From a virus (taxonomy: Duplodnaviria > Heunggongvirae > Uroviricota > Caudoviricetes): 6,070 nucleotides of DNA. Made by a program: the position numbers and the translations under genes. Shown in pieces: positions 1 to 4,989 of the stretch (positions within the stretch are counted from its first letter, which is position 1; every line of letters starts with the position of its first letter). The notes beneath the pieces were generated by a model. It made no database searches. It saw only the letters and a program-made list of their open reading frames with translations, and was not told where the DNA came from. The stretch lies in IMG/VR virus record IMGVR_UViG_2529292869_000013. The stretch is one strand, 5' to 3'.

Positions 1-1184
1 ATTTCCGGTGCCTTACCACTGATGAAGGCTGAGGTGCGCCCGGCTGCGTTCAGAATAGCGGTTGCCAGACGATCCGGAATAATGCTCCTGCGCGCCCATG
101 AACTGAAATGTGTCGGGCGGTTTGATGATACCTGGTTTCCATTCGTTCTCGATGCCGCACCGTAATATCCTGATGCCGGAATATCCGGATCTTCTGCCGG
201 CGCGTTAGTGGCGGTATTGACGCCGTTACCGTCTGTCATGAAGGGCACAAAATAAACGCCCTCACTCTCCCTGTTTTTATACCCGCCGTACACGGTGTCG
301 TACTGGGTAGCGTATGTATTTTTCCAGTAATACGTCGTGTCACCACAAATCCACGGCACATCTGCAGCACTGCCACCATGGCACTGCGCGTTAAACACGG
401 AGAGGTCAGCACGAAACTGTGCCAGCATGGCTGTAAACAGCGCAGGTTGCTGTGCGTGGGTGGCGGCGCTCATGTCAAACTCTCCCTGCATCCAGCACAC
501 CGCCAGCAACACATTTTTCGGGTTCTTCTGTAATGCAGCTTTAGTGCGCGCAATCAGGTCCTGATATAACGGTTTACCCACACCCCAGCGCGCCGAATCC
601 TGGCTGGCCCCCGCGTCCGCACTGAATGTCCCCTCAGCGCCCTGGGTGAATGCAGAACCACCACGACAGCATGGTACCAGCAGGATCCCCGCGTTATTCG
701 GGATATACGGAAGCAGTTTTTTGGCAATATGTAAGCCCTGGCCGACACAGCCGTACTGCCCTTTGCTCAGGTCTGCCTTCGGATGATTCAGCGTACTCAT
801 ATCCTGCACATCATGCAGGCAGTGGTCAGCCGGAATGATGTCGTTATACGTACAACTCTCTCCACCCGGAGTTACCGTGCTGCGGCGCGCCAGCTGTTTA
901 ATGCGCGGATCCGGAGCATCGTAAGAATCCGGTAACGGAAGCCCTTCACCGTAGGCCATGCCGTTGGACTGTCCGGCAAGCACAACCACGTAGAACCAGT
1001 CCGGCTTAGATGAAGGGCCGACCTGTGGATCTCCTTCAATAGCCACCGCCTGCATCAGTGTGTACGGCGTAATGGCAACCGGTCCGCCGTATGGCTGCCA
1101 GCCCTCTTTCAGTTTGTGTGTCAGCTTTTCCGCAAGGTCTGACGGCGACGCCGCCCTGACAACATCATAGTGTTTAAATGCCAT
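1..1184 (-). CDS. NanS-p-like sialate O-acetylesterase (DUF1737-type N-terminal domain fused to SGNH/SASA esterase domain); partial, 3' end runs off the window start
   Basis: ATG at 1184..1182 preceded by SD GGGAGGA. Translation begins MAFKHYDVVRAASPSDLAEKLTHKLKEGWQPYGG and contains VLAGQSNGMAYGEG (GQSN catalytic-Ser block of SGNH esterases). The frame stays open to position 1 (no complete minus-strand ORF is listed here in the track, consistent with an edge-truncated gene). Family assignment is from memory of prophage NanS-p proteins. Confidence 0.7.
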   Translation of the reverse strand, partial: MAFKHYDVVRAASPSDLAEKLTHKLKEGWQPYGGPVAITPYTLMQAVAIEGDPQVGPSSKPDWFYVVVLAGQSNGMAYGEGLPLPDSYDAPDPRIKQLARRSTVTPGGESCTYNDIIPADHCLHDVQDMSTLNHPKADLSKGQYGCVGQGLHIAKKLLPYIPNNAGILLVPCCRGGSAFTQGAEGTFSADAGASQDSARWGVGKPLYQDLIARTKAALQKNPKNVLLAVCWMQGEFDMSAATHAQQPALFTAMLAQFRADLSVFNAQCHGGSAADVPWICGDTTYYWKNTYATQYDTVYGGYKNRESEGVYFVPFMTDGNGVNTATNAPAEDPDIPASGYYGAASRTNGNQVSSNRPTHFSSWARRSIIPDRLATAILNAAGRTSAFISGKAPE

Positions 1185-1377
1185 GAATCCTCCCGGCCGG
1201 GATAATATTGTGAGTAAAATGAGGAGCGGGCTGAAGTCCGGAAGTTACAGGACAATGGCAGAAGAGAGACAACAGCCCGCAATACGAAAAAGGCCGCGCT
1301 ATTGCGCAGAGTGATTACTGTCGGATATTATTCGCCAGCTGAAATATTACTTCACGTTTTGTTGTTTATTCCTTGCC

Positions 1378-1406
1378 GCCCGCGTCTCCCTGCGCGGGCT
1401 TTTTTT
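1378..1406 (+). terminator. Intrinsic terminator, plus-strand orientation
   Basis: Perfect 7-bp GC stem GCCCGCG (1378..1384) / CGCGGGC (1393..1399) with an 8-nt loop, followed by T7 (1400..1406). Confidence 0.5.
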
Positions 1407-1408
1407 GT

Positions 1409-1437
1409 CCATAAGAAAGCCCCTCCGGAGAGGGGCT
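1409..1437 (-). terminator. Hairpin with weak U-tract, minus-strand orientation (possible terminator)
   Basis: 8-bp stem AGCCCCTC / GAGGGGCT (1418..1437) with 4-nt loop. On the minus strand it is followed by TTCTTAT. Lies back-to-back with the plus-strand terminator. Confidence 0.3.
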
Positions 1438-1633
1438 GGAGAGTGGCGCTATGTGCCATTGCATGGTGCCGGGTGCCTCCCGGTGAATTCAGTACCAGCA
1501 CCTGAATCCGCGATTATCCCATATACCTACTCGCTGATTGCCCCTCCGCACAGGGGGATTCACCATGCCAGTTTCTTTTAACAAACTCCCCGCAAACCAG
1601 ACAACAGTCAACCGCCTGAATTGTGAGACATTT

Positions 1634-1659
1634 AAAAAAAAGGCCCGCAAAAGCGAGCC
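1634..1659 (-). terminator. Intrinsic terminator 14 nt downstream of the tRNA cluster
   Basis: Minus-strand reading GGCTCGC-TTTT-GCGGGCC (7-bp stem including one G.U pair) followed by T8 (complement of the A8 run at 1634..1641). Confidence 0.55.
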
Positions 1660-1673
1660 AGGGAAAATAAGTG

Positions 1674-1750
1674 TGGCGCGTTGTACTGGATTCGAACCAG
1701 TGACCGATTGCTTAGAAGGCAATTGCTCTGTCCGGCTGAGCTAACAACGC
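1674..1750 (-). tRNA. argO: tRNA-Arg, anticodon UCU
   Basis: 77-nt cloverleaf folded by hand: perfect acceptor stem GCGTTGT/ACAACGC, D-arm GCTC...GAGC, anticodon stem ATTGC/GCAAT with loop CTTCTAA, T-arm ACTGG-TTCGAAT-CCAGT, discriminator G, encoded CCA. Symbol assigned by position in the ileZ-argN-argO cluster recalled from 933W-type phages. Confidence 0.85.
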
Positions 1751-1763
1751 AGGATACAGATAA

Positions 1764-1840
1764 TGGACCGCCTTCGGGGACCCGAACTCCGCGCAACCAG
1801 CTTCGAAAGCTGGCGCTCTTTCCTGATGAGCTAATGGCGG
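1764..1840 (-). tRNA. argN: tRNA-Arg-like, anticodon UCG by hand folding; imperfect stems
   Basis: D-arm GCTC/GAGC and anticodon stem CCAGC/GCTGG are perfect, loop TTTCGAA, encoded CCA. The acceptor stem has an A-A mismatch (6-67), the T-stem has an A-C mismatch and the T-loop is TTCGGGT. Symbol is positional only. Confidence 0.5.
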
Positions 1841-1847
1841 TATGTGA

Positions 1848-1923
1848 TGGTGGCCCTTGCTGGATTTGAACCAGCGACCTGGCGATTATGAGTCGCTCGC
1901 TCTCACCACTGAGCTAAAGGGCC
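1848..1923 (-). tRNA. ileZ: tRNA-Ile2-like, anticodon CAU (ileX/ileZ type, presumed lysidine-modified)
   Basis: 76-nt cloverleaf: acceptor GGCCCTT/AAGGGCC, D-arm GCTC-AGTGGTGA-GAGC, anticodon loop CTCATAA, T-arm GCTGG-TTCAAAT-CCAGC, encoded CCA. Closely resembles the E. coli ileX sequence as I recall it. Confidence 0.85.
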
Positions 1924-1951: not shown

Positions 1952-2665
1952 TCAATAATCAAGCCCTTGCCTGGATACATATCTGTCTGGCGGGAAGCCA
2001 TAATAGCGGTGAAATACAGAAATAAAGTAGGACCAGCTTGAATAACCACATTTTTCTGCTACAGCCTGTCCATATCCATACCGGGAACATAACATATTGA
2101 CAGCAACACGCATCCGCTCTTCCAGCAACAAGCGACTGAACATGTGCCCTTCATTTTTCAGTTTTGTCTTTAACAAACTCTCACTCATATGCAGGCGTAA
2201 CGCAATCGCACCAAGCGTCCAGCTTGCTGATATATCTGTCTGAATTATCGCCCTGACTTTGGCACTTATACTGGATAAACATCCACTTAAAAACAATGAC
2301 ATCCGTTCATCTGTTTCAAACAGAGACAGGCAGGCCATCATAAGAAACATATCCGTGACCTCTCCGGAAAATCCCTGGCTGGTAATTAAAGCCGCAGCCA
2401 ACGCAGGATTGTTGGGTTCCAGCAACAGGTAAAGCGGAATGTCAGTCAGATGAGTTCTTGTCAGCTTATGCTGAATTTCCAGATATTGACTTACTATGGA
2501 ATGGTTTATATCGAAAATTTTAACTTTGCCATAATGCATAAGGAAAAGCGCCCTGATGCATTTGGTGGCCAGAACGACTGAGCCTGGCTTAAGTGACAAC
2601 GTATCCTTTTCAAGAAAAATATTAATTGGGGAGCAAACCATGATAACTGAACAGACAACAGCCAT
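1952..2665 (-). CDS. AraC-family transcriptional regulator, AppY/GadX/YdeO-like
   Basis: 237-aa ORF. N-terminus MAVVCSVIMVCS parallels AppY MDYVCSVV as recalled. C-terminus has the AraC-type HTH signature (LCSRYGYGQAVAEKCGYSSWSYFISVFHRYYGFPP). AT-rich, roughly 30% G+C on a hand-counted line. Confidence 0.75.
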   Translation of the reverse strand: MAVVCSVIMVCSPINIFLEKDTLSLKPGSVVLATKCIRALFLMHYGKVKIFDINHSIVSQYLEIQHKLTRTHLTDIPLYLLLEPNNPALAAALITSQGFSGEVTDMFLMMACLSLFETDERMSLFLSGCLSSISAKVRAIIQTDISASWTLGAIALRLHMSESLLKTKLKNEGHMFSRLLLEERMRVAVNMLCSRYGYGQAVAEKCGYSSWSYFISVFHRYYGFPPDRYVSRQGLDY

Positions 2666-3287: not shown

Positions 3288-4106
3288 TCAATTATGTTTT
3301 AAAAATGGATAGGTAAAGAATAACAAGTGACACAGATTCAAACCAAAATGGAAAAGGGTGGCAACCCACAAACGCCCACTCCACATCCATGACAATCCAT
3401 ACACAACACCAGATAACGTGGCAAATAATACAAGTAAAGCACCACCTGAATAGTGATAAAAACCAAACAACAAAGCCGCCACAATTAATGCAACCAATGG
3501 AGACGTTACTTCTGATAGCCGTGATTGAATATACCCTCTAAATAATGATTCCTCTGCCAGAGACACAAAAAACAAATTAGCCAATATAAACTCTGGCAAC
3601 CACTCAGGAAAATGAATCTCTGGCTTTAATCCACCAAAAAAAACAGCCAAAAACAGGATAAGAGGAACAGAGAGCGACAGAGCCCCCCACTTCCACAAAG
3701 ACACTTCTGATTTTACTTCTTTTTTAAACAAAGAAGATGTACACAGGACTAACAAAAATGGCACCAGCGCTTTATCAAAATTAAAATACATTGTATAGGG
3801 AGTACTTTGAGGGCCAACAGTAACAGAATTTAGCACTACAGGATTGTGAAACCCTGGCCATAGATGGAAAAATAATGCTATGGCTGATAAAACTATGCCA
3901 ACTTCATATATAGATTTAGCCCAGGCGTTATATTTCCAGTTGAACTTCAAAATAATAAAAAAAACGATTGTAGCAACAAAAAATAACACCGACCAATCAA
4001 TAATATCATTAAGCACAGCCAGGACAACAGACACCGTCAACAATGAAAAAGCCACTACCTTATGCCAACTGAGAGTTGACAGTGACAGTACTAACACAAT
4101 CCACAT
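3288..4106 (-). CDS. CPBP-family intramembrane metalloprotease (CAAX protease / Abi domain), multi-pass membrane protein
   Basis: Highly hydrophobic translation with multiple predicted TM segments. All three CPBP signature motifs are present in order: EESLFR (EExxxR), FGFYH (FxxxH), HFGLN (HxxxN). Start chosen as ATG 4106..4104 with SD AAGGAG 5 nt upstream; the track's GTG at 4112 directly abuts the SD. Roughly 30% G+C. Confidence 0.75.
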   Translation of the reverse strand: MWIVLVLSLSTLSWHKVVAFSLLTVSVVLAVLNDIIDWSVLFFVATIVFFIILKFNWKYNAWAKSIYEVGIVLSAIALFFHLWPGFHNPVVLNSVTVGPQSTPYTMYFNFDKALVPFLLVLCTSSLFKKEVKSEVSLWKWGALSLSVPLILFLAVFFGGLKPEIHFPEWLPEFILANLFFVSLAEESLFRGYIQSRLSEVTSPLVALIVAALLFGFYHYSGGALLVLFATLSGVVYGLSWMWSGRLWVATLFHFGLNLCHLLFFTYPFLKHN

Positions 4107-4137
4107 AAGCACTCCTTTTATTTAATGATGAAGATTG

Positions 4138-4257: not shown

Positions 4258-4629
4258 CTACCGCATATCCATATCTAACCGGACATTCAGAGCCATAAGC
4301 ATTCCTTCAATAATACCTTCCGCTTTATAAAGCCTTTTACCAATAAGCCCATCAGAACATCTATGCTTACGTGCAAGAGCCATAAATGTCATTCCACCTA
4401 CGTAATAATCCACCAACAAATCGTGCAAATACTGATTATTCTTGTTTAATCGTGCCATACAACCACAAATTATCATGGCGTCATCATCAGAACACTTAGG
4501 ACGTGATTTCACTTTAGTCGGGATTAATCCTTTAAAACCAGCAGCTATCGAGGGCCATGTTACATCTTCATGATTATTTGCTGCCCATGCCCCCCATCGC
4601 TCAAGAACCATCTGGATATCACGCGCCAT
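4258..4629 (-). CDS. Phage late-gene antitermination protein Q (short QuuD/phage-82-like type)
   Basis: 123 aa from ATG 4629..4627 (SD GAGGTGG upstream; the GTG at 4638 abuts the SD). Cys-rich ([21 protein letters not shown]), consistent with a zinc-binding Q. Sits immediately after rusA with overlapping stop/start, as in DLP12. Confidence 0.7.
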
Positions 4630-4989
4630 CGTTACCACCTCTGATTTCGTAAATCTTCACGCCCAGCCGTCCACCTGGCACAGGCTGACCGCGCACAATA
4701 TTGATTTCATCAAACTGCTCGTCATCAATGAGCACTTCCGCATGCGTCAGCGCATCCAGCGGTGCTTTCAGAATGTTGTCCAGGTCACGGCGGCGCTTAT
4801 CCGGTGGTTCTGCAATAATTTTTATGCCAGCCGTCCGGACAGGCTTAATTTCAGCCGCTGCTGGCGAACAATAAGCGCCACAGCCCGGCGATAACGCTCA
4901 CCGGCTTTTGATACAAAATATGTGCTGCCACGACGTCGCCAGTAGGTGTTCACCGTCGGCGGGTAAGGCAAAACAAACTCTATACGCAT
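4619..4989 (-). pseudogene. rusA: rusA Holliday-junction resolvase, interrupted by a -1 frameshift near 4822..4826
   Basis: ATG 4989 with SD AAGAGGT gives MRIEFVLPYPPTVNTYWRRRGSTYF...LSGRLA then TAA at 4824..4822. The +2 frame continues [68 protein letters not shown], matching the RusA C-terminal half, to TGA at 4621..4619. The break sits at a run of five T (4819..4823). Confidence 0.65.

Follow-up and report, generated by a model that had tools for sequence, protein, structure and literature searches.

We analysed a 6,070-nt stretch of DNA from a Caudoviricetes record (IMG/VR IMGVR_UViG_2529292869_000013), hereafter the window, and conclude with high confidence that its interval 1185-1673 is the sRNA dyad of a Sakai Sp4-type lambdoid prophage: two genes for Hfq-binding sRNAs, situated between nanS-p and the tRNA genes of the late region, face each other and end at back-to-back intrinsic terminators. 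The finding is real, both genes having been detected experimentally in identical DNA. It is not new, as it repeats results published in 2014 and 2021. Our analysis rests on sequence identity, Rfam membership, the mapping of published CRAC peaks, Northern probes and RIL-seq coordinates onto the window, and the conservation of promoters and terminators. The experimental evidence on the dyad comes from papers on identical or near-identical DNA, and we infer where transcription begins, that a short isoform exists and how targets are regulated. Beyond the published EcOnc08/21/42 RNAs, we add a conserved internal promoter, compensatory changes in the terminator, a predicted ~68-nt form and an allelic relation to the anti-sRNAs.

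The interval between the tRNA genes and nanS-p

Prophage Sp4 of E. coli O157:H7 Sakai (argO1 to ECs_1088) is 100% identical to window positions 1150-1760. The interval lies where an earlier note on this DNA had placed it, between tRNA-Arg(tct) (1674-1750, minus strand) and the start codon of the SASA/NanS-p esterase gene (ATG at 1184; Table 1). In the late region it follows Q, the tRNA genes and the moron and precedes nanS-p and the lysis genes, an order also seen in Stx2a and Stx1 phages. The note described the slot as gene-free, which it is not, as both a minus-strand STnc100 gene recognised by Rfam and a published plus-strand Hfq-binding RNA are present. It correctly stated that sRNAs are reported from the corresponding region of EHEC prophages: in Sp3, 4, 5, 9, 10, 11, 15 and 17, the space separating the moron CDS from the next ORF downstream holds a pair of convergent sRNAs (Tree et al. 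2014, PMC4104026).

Table 1. Features mapped in and around the 1185-1673 interval, in window coordinates
Feature	Position	Strand	Basis
5' part of nanS-p, SASA-family sialate O-acetylesterase gene (ECs_1088); ATG 1184..1182	1..1184	-	RefSeq annotation, identical DNA
Plus-strand sRNA, long isoform (EcOnc21 + EcOnc08; EPEC E2348C_1409.E2348C_1408.IGR), same terminator as short form	1178..1406; 5' end ~1213-1225	+	promoter scan; EPEC RNA-seq; CRAC; Northern
Conserved terminator-like hairpin, CUGCGCAAUAGCGCGG then CCUUUUUCG, upstream of nanS-p	1284..1309	-	terminator scan; conservation
Putative sigma-70 promoter of short sRNA: -35 TTGCGC 1302-1307, 18-nt spacer, -10 TATTAT 1326-1331	1302..1331	+	conservation; AsxR/AgvB likeness
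Plus-strand sRNA EcOnc08, predicted short form of ~68 nt (66-70)	1337..1406	+	CRAC peak; target motif; variants; fold
STnc100 terminator; stem 1437..1418, tail UUUCUUAUGG	1408..1437	-	terminator scan; hairpin within Rfam consensus structure
STnc100-family sRNA gene (EcOnc05 of Sakai Sp4; related to PasD)	~1624..1407 (Rfam part 1597..1407)	-	Rfam; CRAC; Northern
Intrinsic terminator directly 3' of argO tRNA-Arg(tct); stem 1659..1642, T8 1641..1634	1634..1659	-	terminator scan
Late-region tRNA cluster: ileZ (CAT), argN (TCG), argO (TCT)	1674..1923	-	ARAGORN, Rfam; Sakai + PV15-279 annotation

The interval appears to be non-coding, in line with the note's statement that it holds no credible ORF. 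None of its seven ORFs of 32-77 aa has a Pfam match above threshold, and the only recurrent one, inside STnc100, varies from 11 to 45 codons among homologues, with frame changes. A PGAP pseudogene fragment at 1453-1578 (plus strand) and ribosome footprints on some EDL933 STnc100 copies might suggest a decayed stx locus or a small-protein gene, but we consider this reading almost certainly wrong. The homologous interval is intact downstream of stxB in Stx phages, and blastn and tblastn searches with stx2AB returned only chance matches, none of them in 1185-1673. We therefore rejected both the stx remnant, which the note had named among the outcomes that would overturn its proposal, and small-protein coding, on the basis of these searches, the Pfam result and the variability of the ORF. 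The note's view of the interval as the stx slot holds in that stxAB of Stx phages does lie between argO and STnc100. However, stx does not replace the interval: it is inserted at the tRNA-proximal end (~1600-1673), and the remainder is kept downstream of stxB.

Scanning positions 1000-2100 gave six terminator-like sites, compared to 1.2 +/- 1.2 in shuffled sequences. These include the three hairpins with T runs that had been noticed before: the minus-strand structures after argO and at 1437..1418, and a plus-strand stem at 1378-1399 followed by T7 at 1400-1406. The back-to-back terminators are separated by 2-5 nt. The minus-strand member of this pair is more than the mere partner it was taken for, as it is the STnc100 gene's own terminator. 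We also identified a fourth conserved terminator-like hairpin, absent from the earlier note, on the minus strand at 1309..1294. Its complement holds the TTGCGC -35 of the putative plus-strand promoter, and it is kept in EcOnc08-type, AsxR/AgvB-type and EcOnc04-type loci. In PasD/EcOnc04-type loci, the PasD 3' end sequence identifies the equivalent hairpin as the terminator of an STnc100-like RNA. We propose that, as long as no Q-modified polymerase passes them, the three minus-strand terminators would prevent expression of nanS-p and the lysis genes.

The minus-strand gene matches the complete STnc100 covariance model (RF02076, positions 1-206 of 206) at window 1597..1407, with 138 bits against a gathering score of 47 and an E value of 2.4e-31; its fold has an energy of -83 kcal/mol (z -1.82). 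STnc100 corresponds to EcOnc05, EcOnc27 and sRNA103 in EHEC and is related to EPEC PasD; the window element is full-length, at the same location and identical to the Sp4 copy. The EcOnc05 Hfq-CRAC peak, present in 5 of 5 data sets, maps to 1536..1428 on the minus strand (Tree et al. 2014, PMC4104026). On Northern blots EcOnc05 runs at ~222 nt, within the 170-250 nt expected of this Hfq-associated class, and the probe is exactly window 1505-1539 on the expected strand (PMC4104026). STnc100 copies are also transcribed in EDL933, one of them Northern-positive. Compared with the Stx-phage copies, the central variable loop is shorter in the window (191 versus 206-215 matched nt), and the gene is preceded by a tRNA terminator rather than by stxB.

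The last Ts of the argO terminator and the following AAAT form a -10-like TTAAAT (1635..1630), and such a hexamer is kept 5-7 nt upstream of the conserved CTCACAATTC block across unrelated upstream contexts. This hexamer probably serves as the STnc100 -10, with a start at about 1624 and a length of about 216 nt. The EcOnc05-type RNA would then run from ~1624 to 1409, stopping at the 1437..1418 hairpin. A TTGACT box at 1606..1601 was rejected as the -35, as it lacks a -10 at 16-18 nt downstream and sits inside the ~222-nt RNA.

Isoforms, promoter and conservation of the plus-strand RNA

The earlier note proposed a plus-strand Hfq sRNA of 65-80 nt. An Hfq-associated RNA ending at the 1378-1406 terminator is borne out by EcOnc08 CRAC and EPEC RIL-seq data, but the experimental species, at ~271 nt and 182 nt, are longer than the proposed size. 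The EcOnc08 Hfq-CRAC peak, again in 5 of 5 data sets, maps to 1332-1404 on the plus strand (Table S2, Tree et al. 2014, PMC4104026), and the EcOnc21 peak, upstream of it, maps to 1241-1326 on the same strand (PMC4104026). The published Northern probe is exactly window 1298-1332 on the expected strand and detects a band of ~271 nt (PMC4104026). Because the Sakai record changed version, probe-based mapping was needed; our use of Tree's table depends on the probes landing on the peaks, with a shift of +142 at Sp5 and none at Sp4.

Over 1130-1554, only 2 SNPs separate the window from the EPEC PP6 locus, and there is no difference across 1225-1406. RIL-seq identified an sRNA there, E2348C_1409.E2348C_1408.IGR, whose RNA-seq estimate (182 nt, 1444797-1444978) corresponds to window 1225-1406 and which the authors call a homologue of EcOnc08/21/42 (Pearl Mizrahi et al. 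2021). The window therefore carries the sequence of these published RNAs, with 100% identity to Sp4 and no change across the sRNA in EPEC PP6. The EcOnc08-type RNA has no Rfam family and no RefSeq annotation.

The sizes given for this RNA disagree (~271 nt on Northern blots, 182 nt from EPEC RNA-seq, 68 nt by prediction), and we suggest that two forms share the terminator at 1378-1406, both antisense to the late operon and Hfq-dependent. The long form, of ~180-270 nt, would start near or upstream of 1213-1225, and our promoter scan found a promoter-like ATGCCA-N17-GATAAT at 1178-1206. It is antisense to the nanS-p 5'UTR and does not fold better than shuffled sequences (z -1.08). The short form would start at about A1337 from a TTGCGC-N18-TATTAT promoter and comprise a conserved 5' GCUGAA, the CUUCACGUUU core, the G/U-rich stretch, CCUUGCC (1371-1377), the stem and U7; its predicted fold has an energy of -18.1 kcal/mol (z -2.77). 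This ~68-nt form remains a prediction because the published probe sits upstream of its predicted start.

Both the G/U-rich stretch (1353-1375) and the promoter noticed earlier, TTGCGC (1302-1307)-N16-GATATT (1324-1329), are present in the sequence. Only the first half of that promoter holds up: the mapped promoters of AsxR and AgvB, which lie at the homologous position, likewise have TTGCGC as their -35, but GATATT is GGTATT in many variants. Judging from the sequence, TATTAT would be the better -10. Diverged homologues with differing spacers (L068, L051, L053, L073 and L010) retain these hexamers at a spacing of 18 nt (19 in L010). Across our comparative sets of 37 promoter-plus-sRNA variants and 18 sRNA variants, the -35/N18/-10 arrangement, the CUUCACGUUU core and the U-tailed hairpin are all retained. 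Per-sequence folding recovered the terminator hairpin in 18 of 18 variants, at -10.5 to -20.1 kcal/mol; we chose this over counting pairs in the MAFFT alignment, which placed the L053 hairpin out of register. The terminators of L053, L051 and L010 carry double compensatory substitutions, and the rho-independent terminator at 1378-1406 appears to be under selection. CCTTGCC, immediately 5' of it, is kept in 16 of the 18 variants.

Of 5426 complete E. coli genomes, 991 (about 18%) carry the plus-strand module. Beside STnc100 in an IMG/VR sample of 120 contigs, the EcOnc08-type cassette is ~3x commoner than the AsxR/AgvB type (36 versus 11). A search of genome contigs with the 14-mer TTCCTTGCCGCCCG found no true homologue, its 120 matches being chance ones from unrelated phyla.

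Relation to known sRNAs and mode of action

The plus-strand RNA is a convergent, Hfq-bound partner of an STnc100-type sRNA in the moron slot, as are the anti-sRNAs AsxR (RF02703) and AgvB (RF02702) and EcOnc03, which lie at exactly this position and are Hfq-dependent. All share the promoter architecture, a start (predicted for the window RNA) ~6 nt after the -10 and a short U-tailed terminator. The transcribed parts, in contrast, can be aligned only as a terminator shape, and the anti-sRNAs are 51-60 nt long compared with a predicted 66-70 nt or more for the window RNA, all of whose reported species are longer. The known partners differ as well: AsxR and AgvB act on core sRNAs, whose seeds members of this family block by pairing through a variable 5' region, whereas the partners listed for the EPEC sRNA are mRNAs (Pearl Mizrahi et al. 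2021). As a side observation, the RNA could pair with the 5' region of AgvB at -10.8 kcal/mol, with 17 of 300 shuffles as good, which is suggestive only.

Other resemblances are looser. The G/U-rich single strand GUUUUGUUGUUU resembles GcvB in its capacity to pair with a C/A-rich element, AAACAACAAA, that directly precedes the start codon of dppA, a GcvB target (PMC4104026) that is also a RIL-seq partner of the EPEC sRNA. However, there is no homology to GcvB, the predicted pairing does not exceed that of shuffles and the RIL-seq motif favours CCUUGCC over the G/U run, leaving a resemblance only. StxS (EcOnc15), the short pR'-tR' transcript of Stx phages, is likewise an Hfq-binding late-region sRNA, and StxS and the dyad 'bookend' stx (PMC7873438). 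It differs in lying upstream of the tRNAs and stx, outside the interval, and in running in the sense direction from pR'. One sequence-level likeness was dismissed: the Spot 42 model scores only 11 bits (E 8) in Rfam, which is chance level. The shared element is presumably UUACUUCACGU, common to Spot 42 and the plus-strand RNA.

We propose that the plus-strand RNA acts in trans. Its Hfq-binding module would be the U-tailed terminator with the adjoining U-rich single strand, and its seed would be CCUUGCC, which immediately precedes the hairpin, perhaps together with the G/U-rich run. Among the mRNAs that this seed would pair with are tir, espC and, in their 5'UTRs, cfa and dppA. The partners of the EPEC sRNA include the 5'UTRs of cfa (767 chimeras) and dppA (197 chimeras) (Pearl Mizrahi et al. 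2021), and the common RIL-seq target motif, GGCAAGG, is complementary to CCUUGCC, as expected of a seed. A review gives the targets as 'unknown' (PMC7873438). Energy-based prediction was dropped as evidence because shuffles did as well: against 22-nt windows of the EPEC dppA and cfa leaders, 92 of 200 and 136 of 200 shuffled sRNAs formed duplexes as good, and unrestricted duplex folding gave 77 of 300 and 150 of 300.

Three other accounts of the plus-strand RNA deserve consideration. That it belongs to the AsxR/AgvB family and sponges a core sRNA seems highly improbable to us. It shares their position, orientation, U-tailed terminator, Hfq binding and promoter scaffold, with the -35 TTGCGC inside the conserved hairpin and an 18-nt spacer, but its transcribed region lacks their conserved 3' block GUAUCUCAUGC...UUGCCCGAACCCA; the window does not contain the conserved 3' region of ~42 nt (GUAUCUCAUGC..UUGCCCGAACCCAnUCGGGC). 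Neither of the two Rfam models, for AsxR and for AgvB, had a match at E<=1 in the whole window or at E<=10 in 1280-1420, while the positive control, AsxR in Sakai Sp5, scored 88.1 bits. The missing 3' motif and the failing models led us to reject homology, and the mRNA partners listed for the EPEC sRNA also speak against a sponge. The hairpin could instead be a mere insulator, half of a bidirectional terminator that blocks stray antisense transcription into STnc100 and the tRNAs, with the Hfq-bound RNA a functionless by-product. The tight spacing of the two terminators, the lack of a validated target or phenotype (review PMC7873438) and the chance-level pairing in silico fit this account. Yet we regard it as quite improbable. 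A dedicated promoter lies upstream, its hexamers and their spacing conserved, and the untranslated blocks CUUCACGUUU and CCUUGCC are better conserved than a terminator alone would require. Also against it are the Hfq enrichment in all five CRAC sets and in RIL-seq, with a common target motif, and the spread of the module among E. coli genomes.

It also appears rather unlikely that the RNA acts mainly in cis, with its trans contacts secondary. Here, being complementary over its whole length to the late transcript between STnc100 and nanS-p, it would affect that transcript by base-pairing (RNase III processing or destabilisation) or by transcription interference, and would thereby tune esterase and lysis-gene expression or uncouple the upstream moron or stx message from the lysis cassette. 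The overlap with the nanS-p 5'UTR favours this account, as an RNA of ~271 nt would cover the RBS and the start codon at 1184 too. At least eight Sakai prophages carry the dyad at one fixed place, after the late promoter and before the lysis genes, for a reason that the review PMC7873438 calls 'unclear'. In EDL933, ncR1641710 lies beside a copy of STnc100 and may be antisense to the start of the esterase gene. However, AsxR and AgvB act from the same position in trans on core sRNAs (PMC4104026), and the RIL-seq chimeras of the EPEC copy with core mRNAs are abundant. Moreover, the late transcript is terminated upstream in the lysogen, so the cis target is normally absent, and conservation is highest in the seed-proximal 3' module and the promoter, not opposite the RBS.

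Within the trans-acting reading, we tentatively suggest, as a possibility that may well not hold, that the plus-strand gene is a third, unnamed allelic cassette of the 'anti-sRNA slot'. It would combine the AsxR/AgvB promoter scaffold with a ~68-nt Hfq sRNA whose G/U-rich run and CCUUGCC seed address mRNAs of the GcvB regulon (dppA, cfa). The ~68-nt form would then have escaped detection because the sole published probe lies upstream of its start.

Implications for prophage sRNA dyads

In EHEC and EPEC, prophage sRNA dyads rewire the regulation of the core genome: AsxR affects haem use and AgvB amino-acid uptake. Dyads adjoin stx, and a recent study connected SNPs in STnc100/EcOnc27 with the risk of HUS (PMC12711010). 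For annotation pipelines, our results mean that this 'empty' intergenic region should bear two ncRNA features. The locus is a reasonable candidate for functional work because its plus-strand RNA is found in ~18% of complete E. coli genomes, stands outside Rfam and RefSeq annotation and is without a validated target. If the third-cassette reading is true, the same locus would be filled with a GcvB antagonist (AgvB) in some prophages and with a GcvB-like regulator in others.

Two facing sRNA genes between argO and nanS-p

The window is a lambdoid prophage late region lying on the minus strand, and the interval studied comprises the 489 bases from tRNA-Arg(tct), argO, to the start codon of the sialate esterase gene nanS-p. 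Pfam matched none of the seven ORFs in it (32-77 aa) above threshold. Nevertheless, the interval is not the gene-free slot described in the earlier note, because an Rfam 15 scan of the window returned a full-length match to the sRNA STnc100 (RF02076) at 1597..1407 (-), scoring 138 bits (E 2.4e-31) against a gathering score of 47. A terminator scan recovered all three terminators where they had been proposed and added a fourth; the 1000-2100 region holds six terminator-like sites, compared to 1.2 +/- 1.2 in shuffles. One hairpin, previously read as half of a back-to-back pair, is STnc100's own terminator.

Features of the window, with Hfq peaks from Table S2 of PMC4104026
Feature	Window position	Strand	Basis or Hfq data sets	Sakai coordinates	Northern
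DUF968, RusA, Q antiterminator	4258-4638	-			
CPBP protease	3288-4112	-			
HTH/AraC-type regulator	1952-2665	-			
tRNAs, anticodons CAT, TCG, TCT	1923..1674	-			
nanS-p (SASA-family sialate esterase)	ATG at 1184	-			
Terminator, T8	stem 1659..1642	-	terminator scan		
Terminator of STnc100	stem 1437..1418	-	terminator scan		
Terminator, T7	stem 1378-1399	+	terminator scan		
Fourth terminator-like hairpin	1309..1294	-	terminator scan		
EcOnc05 (inside STnc100)	1536..1428	-	5/5	1179806-1179914 (+)	~222 nt
EcOnc08	1332-1404	+	5/5	1179938-1180010 (-)	~271 nt, shared probe
EcOnc21	1241-1326	+	3/5	1180016-1180101 (-)	~271 nt, shared probe

Positions 1150-1760 are 100% identical to prophage Sp4 of E. 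coli O157:H7 Sakai, from argO1 to ECs_1088 (window = 1181342 - Sakai coordinate; strands flipped). Hfq has been UV-crosslinked in Sakai (Tree et al. 2014, PMC4104026), revealing convergent sRNA pairs between a moron CDS and a conserved downstream ORF in prophages Sp3, 4, 5, 9, 10, 11, 15 and 17; the pair of the Stx2 phage Sp5 is EcOnc27 and AsxR. This bears out the earlier remark that regulatory sRNAs have been reported from the equivalent region of EHEC prophages, and the sRNA suggested at 1330..1406 is a near base-exact match to Hfq-bound EcOnc08. The EcOnc05 probe matches 1505-1539 exactly and the 'EcOnc08/21/42' probe is the exact complement of plus-strand 1298-1332; both fall on their peaks only with unshifted coordinates at Sp4. 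Since the current NC_002695.2 record differs from the 2014 coordinates by +142 bp at Sp5 (stx2, AsxR; shift determined from stx2B and the AsxR core) and not at all at Sp4, published EcOnc coordinates need local calibration before transfer.

Upstream of the Rfam match, STnc100 homologues share a block, CTCACAATTCAG..GTTGAC, with a -10-like hexamer (TTAAAT, TGTAAT, TTACAT or TGAAAT) 5-7 nt before it; farther upstream lies the tRNA terminator, the end of stx2B or stx1B, or other DNA. Block and hexamer place the STnc100 start near 1624, and the predicted RNA of ~216 nt agrees with the ~222 nt seen by Northern. In the window this hexamer, TTAAAT, shares bases with the T8 run that ends the argO terminator (1630-1641, -). 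The equivalent hexamer keeps its distance from the CTCACAATTC block despite stx2B, stx1B or unrelated upstream DNA (L001, L002, L003, L037, L085, L219), a pattern suggesting that STnc100 carries its own promoter core along. Only one ORF, MVNPP..., recurs within STnc100, and since its length in homologues ranges between 11 and 45 codons, it does not encode a conserved peptide. All 11 STnc100 copies of EDL933 are transcribed, one of them with Northern confirmation; PasD of EPEC and STnc100 have a common ancestry; and overexpression of the Stx2-phage copy EcOnc27/sRNA103, which carries HUS-associated SNPs, increases fimZ and espA transcripts.

RefSeq PGAP annotates neither sRNA, placing instead a partial 'hypothetical protein' pseudogene, probably spurious, at 1453-1578 (+), within and antisense to STnc100. 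The tRNA at 1848-1923 (-) is tRNA-Met (CAT) according to ARAGORN and ileZ, a tRNA-Ile with a CAT anticodon that is presumably lysidine-modified, in Sakai and RefSeq.

Predicted promoter and isoforms of the plus-strand RNA, and its partners

Two IMG/VR scans yielded 220 loci; with its promoter, the plus-strand sRNA comes in 37 distinct sequences there, and by itself in 18. Five diverged loci (L068, L051, L053, L073 and L010) have a -35 of TTGCGC, TTGCAA or TTACAC (window 1302-1307), a spacer of 18 nt (19 in L010) with different sequence, and a -10 of TATTAT (window 1326-1331; TAGTAT in L010). They also keep GCUGAA at the predicted start (~A1337), the CUUCACGUUU core and, usually, CCUUGCC. The -10 proposed earlier, GATATT, has to be replaced: it is GGTATT in many variants, while TATTAT is invariant among close ones. 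All 18 sRNA variants form a U-tailed hairpin (-10.5 to -20.1 kcal/mol), with double substitutions that preserve the stem (window GCCCGCGU/GCGCGGGC to AACCGCUC/GAGCGGUU in L053) and compensatory pairs in L051 and L010 as well. Of 5426 complete E. coli genomes, 991 carry the module, in 1-6 copies each; in 12 records drawn from across the ranking, nothing was annotated beneath it.

The size suggested earlier, about 65 to 80 nt, needs correction, as the reported species measure ~271 nt (Northern) and 182 nt (EPEC). The long form probably starts from a promoter-like ATGCCA-N17-GATAAT at 1178-1206, and would then measure ~192 nt, near the EPEC figure; ~271 nt would imply a start near 1134, within nanS-p. 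Because the Northern probe lies upstream of the predicted start, a ~68-nt species could not have been detected; this short form is inferred. Its predicted sequence, 1337-1406, has a folding energy of -18.1 kcal/mol (z = -2.77), compared to an unremarkable z = -1.08 for the long form, 1213-1406. The main stem of the latter fold is an 8-bp inverted repeat, GCGGGCTG / CAGCCCGC (1226-1233 and 1273-1280), which falls within the nanS-p 5'UTR, the long plus-strand RNA and the EcOnc21 Hfq peak, and reaches ~12 bp in AgvB-type loci (GGGCTGTAGTCC / GGACTACAGCCC). The core UUACUUCACGU at 1348-1358 (+) also occurs in a single-stranded region of Spot 42; we regard this likeness as chance, the Rfam Spot_42 model giving only 11 bits (E 8).

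RIL-seq in EPEC E2348/69 (Pearl Mizrahi et al. 2021, PMC8550237) identified a new accessory-genome sRNA, E2348C_1409.E2348C_1408.IGR (NC_011601 1444797-1444978, -, 182 nt), whose annotation there names EcOnc08/21/42 as homologous. It maps to window 1225-1406 (+), and its locus is identical to 1130-1554 save two SNPs, both outside the sRNA. Its chimeric partners include the 5'UTRs of cfa (767 chimeras) and dppA (197), along with emrA, tir, espC and pcm (PMC8550237). The targets' common motif, GGCAAGG or GGCAGGG, is complementary to CCUUGCC at 1371-1377, directly 5' of the terminator. Predicted duplexes fall where expected (cfa UCGGCAAGGGU with 1369-1378; a C/A-rich element of dppA with 1357-1377), yet shuffled sRNAs pair just as well, and the predictions carry no weight. 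In this EPEC prophage, PP6 (L347, NC_011601 1444300-1445500), ISEc13 cuts off the 5' part of STnc100 at the equivalent of ~1554. The plus-strand sRNA, the species detected by RIL-seq, is intact; therefore, the plus-strand gene needs no complete partner.

The anti-sRNA slot and the position of stx

In Sakai Sp5 the place of the plus-strand module is taken by the anti-sRNA AsxR, which as a positive control scored 88.1 bits in Rfam and abuts STnc100. A four-way alignment is a mosaic, in which the flanks are common (STnc100 on one side; everything from the CUGCGCAAnnGCGCGG-CCUUUUU hairpin to nanS-p on the other) and the segment between is swapped. AsxR and a second anti-sRNA, AgvB, share the window's -35, TTGCGC, inside the complement of the conserved hairpin, and its 18-nt spacing; their -10 is TAAAAT, and their mapped starts lie ~6 nt past it. 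We rejected membership of the AsxR/AgvB family, since the transcribed parts lack homology, the window has no GUAUCUCAUGC...UUGCCCGAACCCA block, and neither Rfam model matches the window, or 141 bases of it at E<=10. The window RNA thus works and sits like an anti-sRNA-slot cassette, outside that family. Of 120 IMG/VR contigs retrieved with the STnc100 core, 36 bear this cassette, 11 the AsxR/AgvB type and 75 neither; five more STnc100 copies were too near a contig end for classification.

The hairpin CUGCGCAAUAGCGCGG + CCUUUUU at 1284-1309 (-) is kept in every locus type. It appears to terminate the STnc100-like RNA in PasD/EcOnc04-type loci, which lack a convergent partner, and its opposite strand carries the -35 of the AsxR, AgvB and EcOnc08 promoters, making it a dual-use element. 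Across the esterase gene, just past the nanS-p 3' end and outside the window, L002 and L003 have weak Esr41-like Rfam hits (476-552, +; ~30 bits against a gathering score of 102), where EPEC is reported to have PasA.

The earlier note took the interval for the slot that stx occupies. It was right that stx lies between argO and nanS-p; the order in a Stx2a phage and VT1-Sakai is argO, stxA, stxB, STnc100, plus-strand module, nanS-p, with STnc100 beginning 75 nt after stx2B (also PMC12370729). Homology of these loci with the window spans 1185 to ~1630, so stx is inserted at the tRNA-proximal edge and the interval is retained. The window holds no stx remnant.

Proposed mode of action

Taken together, we consider it highly likely that the locus encodes two convergent sRNAs, each Hfq-dependent, trans-acting and with a promoter of its own, and that back-to-back terminators insulate them. 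The U-tailed hairpin and U-rich single strand would form the Hfq module of the plus-strand RNA, CCUUGCC, perhaps with the G/U run, would be its seed, and cfa, dppA or virulence mRNAs are candidate trans targets. Its orientation makes it antisense to the late transcript, and it might act there in cis; we hold this less likely but still a live alternative, and it would be compatible with the trans role to which the RIL-seq chimeras point. That the element is purely an insulator is more improbable still: it does bear one of the facing terminators, and it also yields an Hfq-bound RNA.

The Hfq sRNA deduced from sequence alone is a real RNA, and that observation was largely correct. Papers of 2014 and 2021 had reported the locus itself before; a review from 2021 enters EcOnc42/21/08 under 'Northern probing; Hfq-CRAC; targets unknown' and calls the reason for the dyad arrangement unclear (PMC7873438). 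Our analysis adds a predicted short isoform, and it relates the plus-strand gene to AsxR and AgvB as allelic cassettes.
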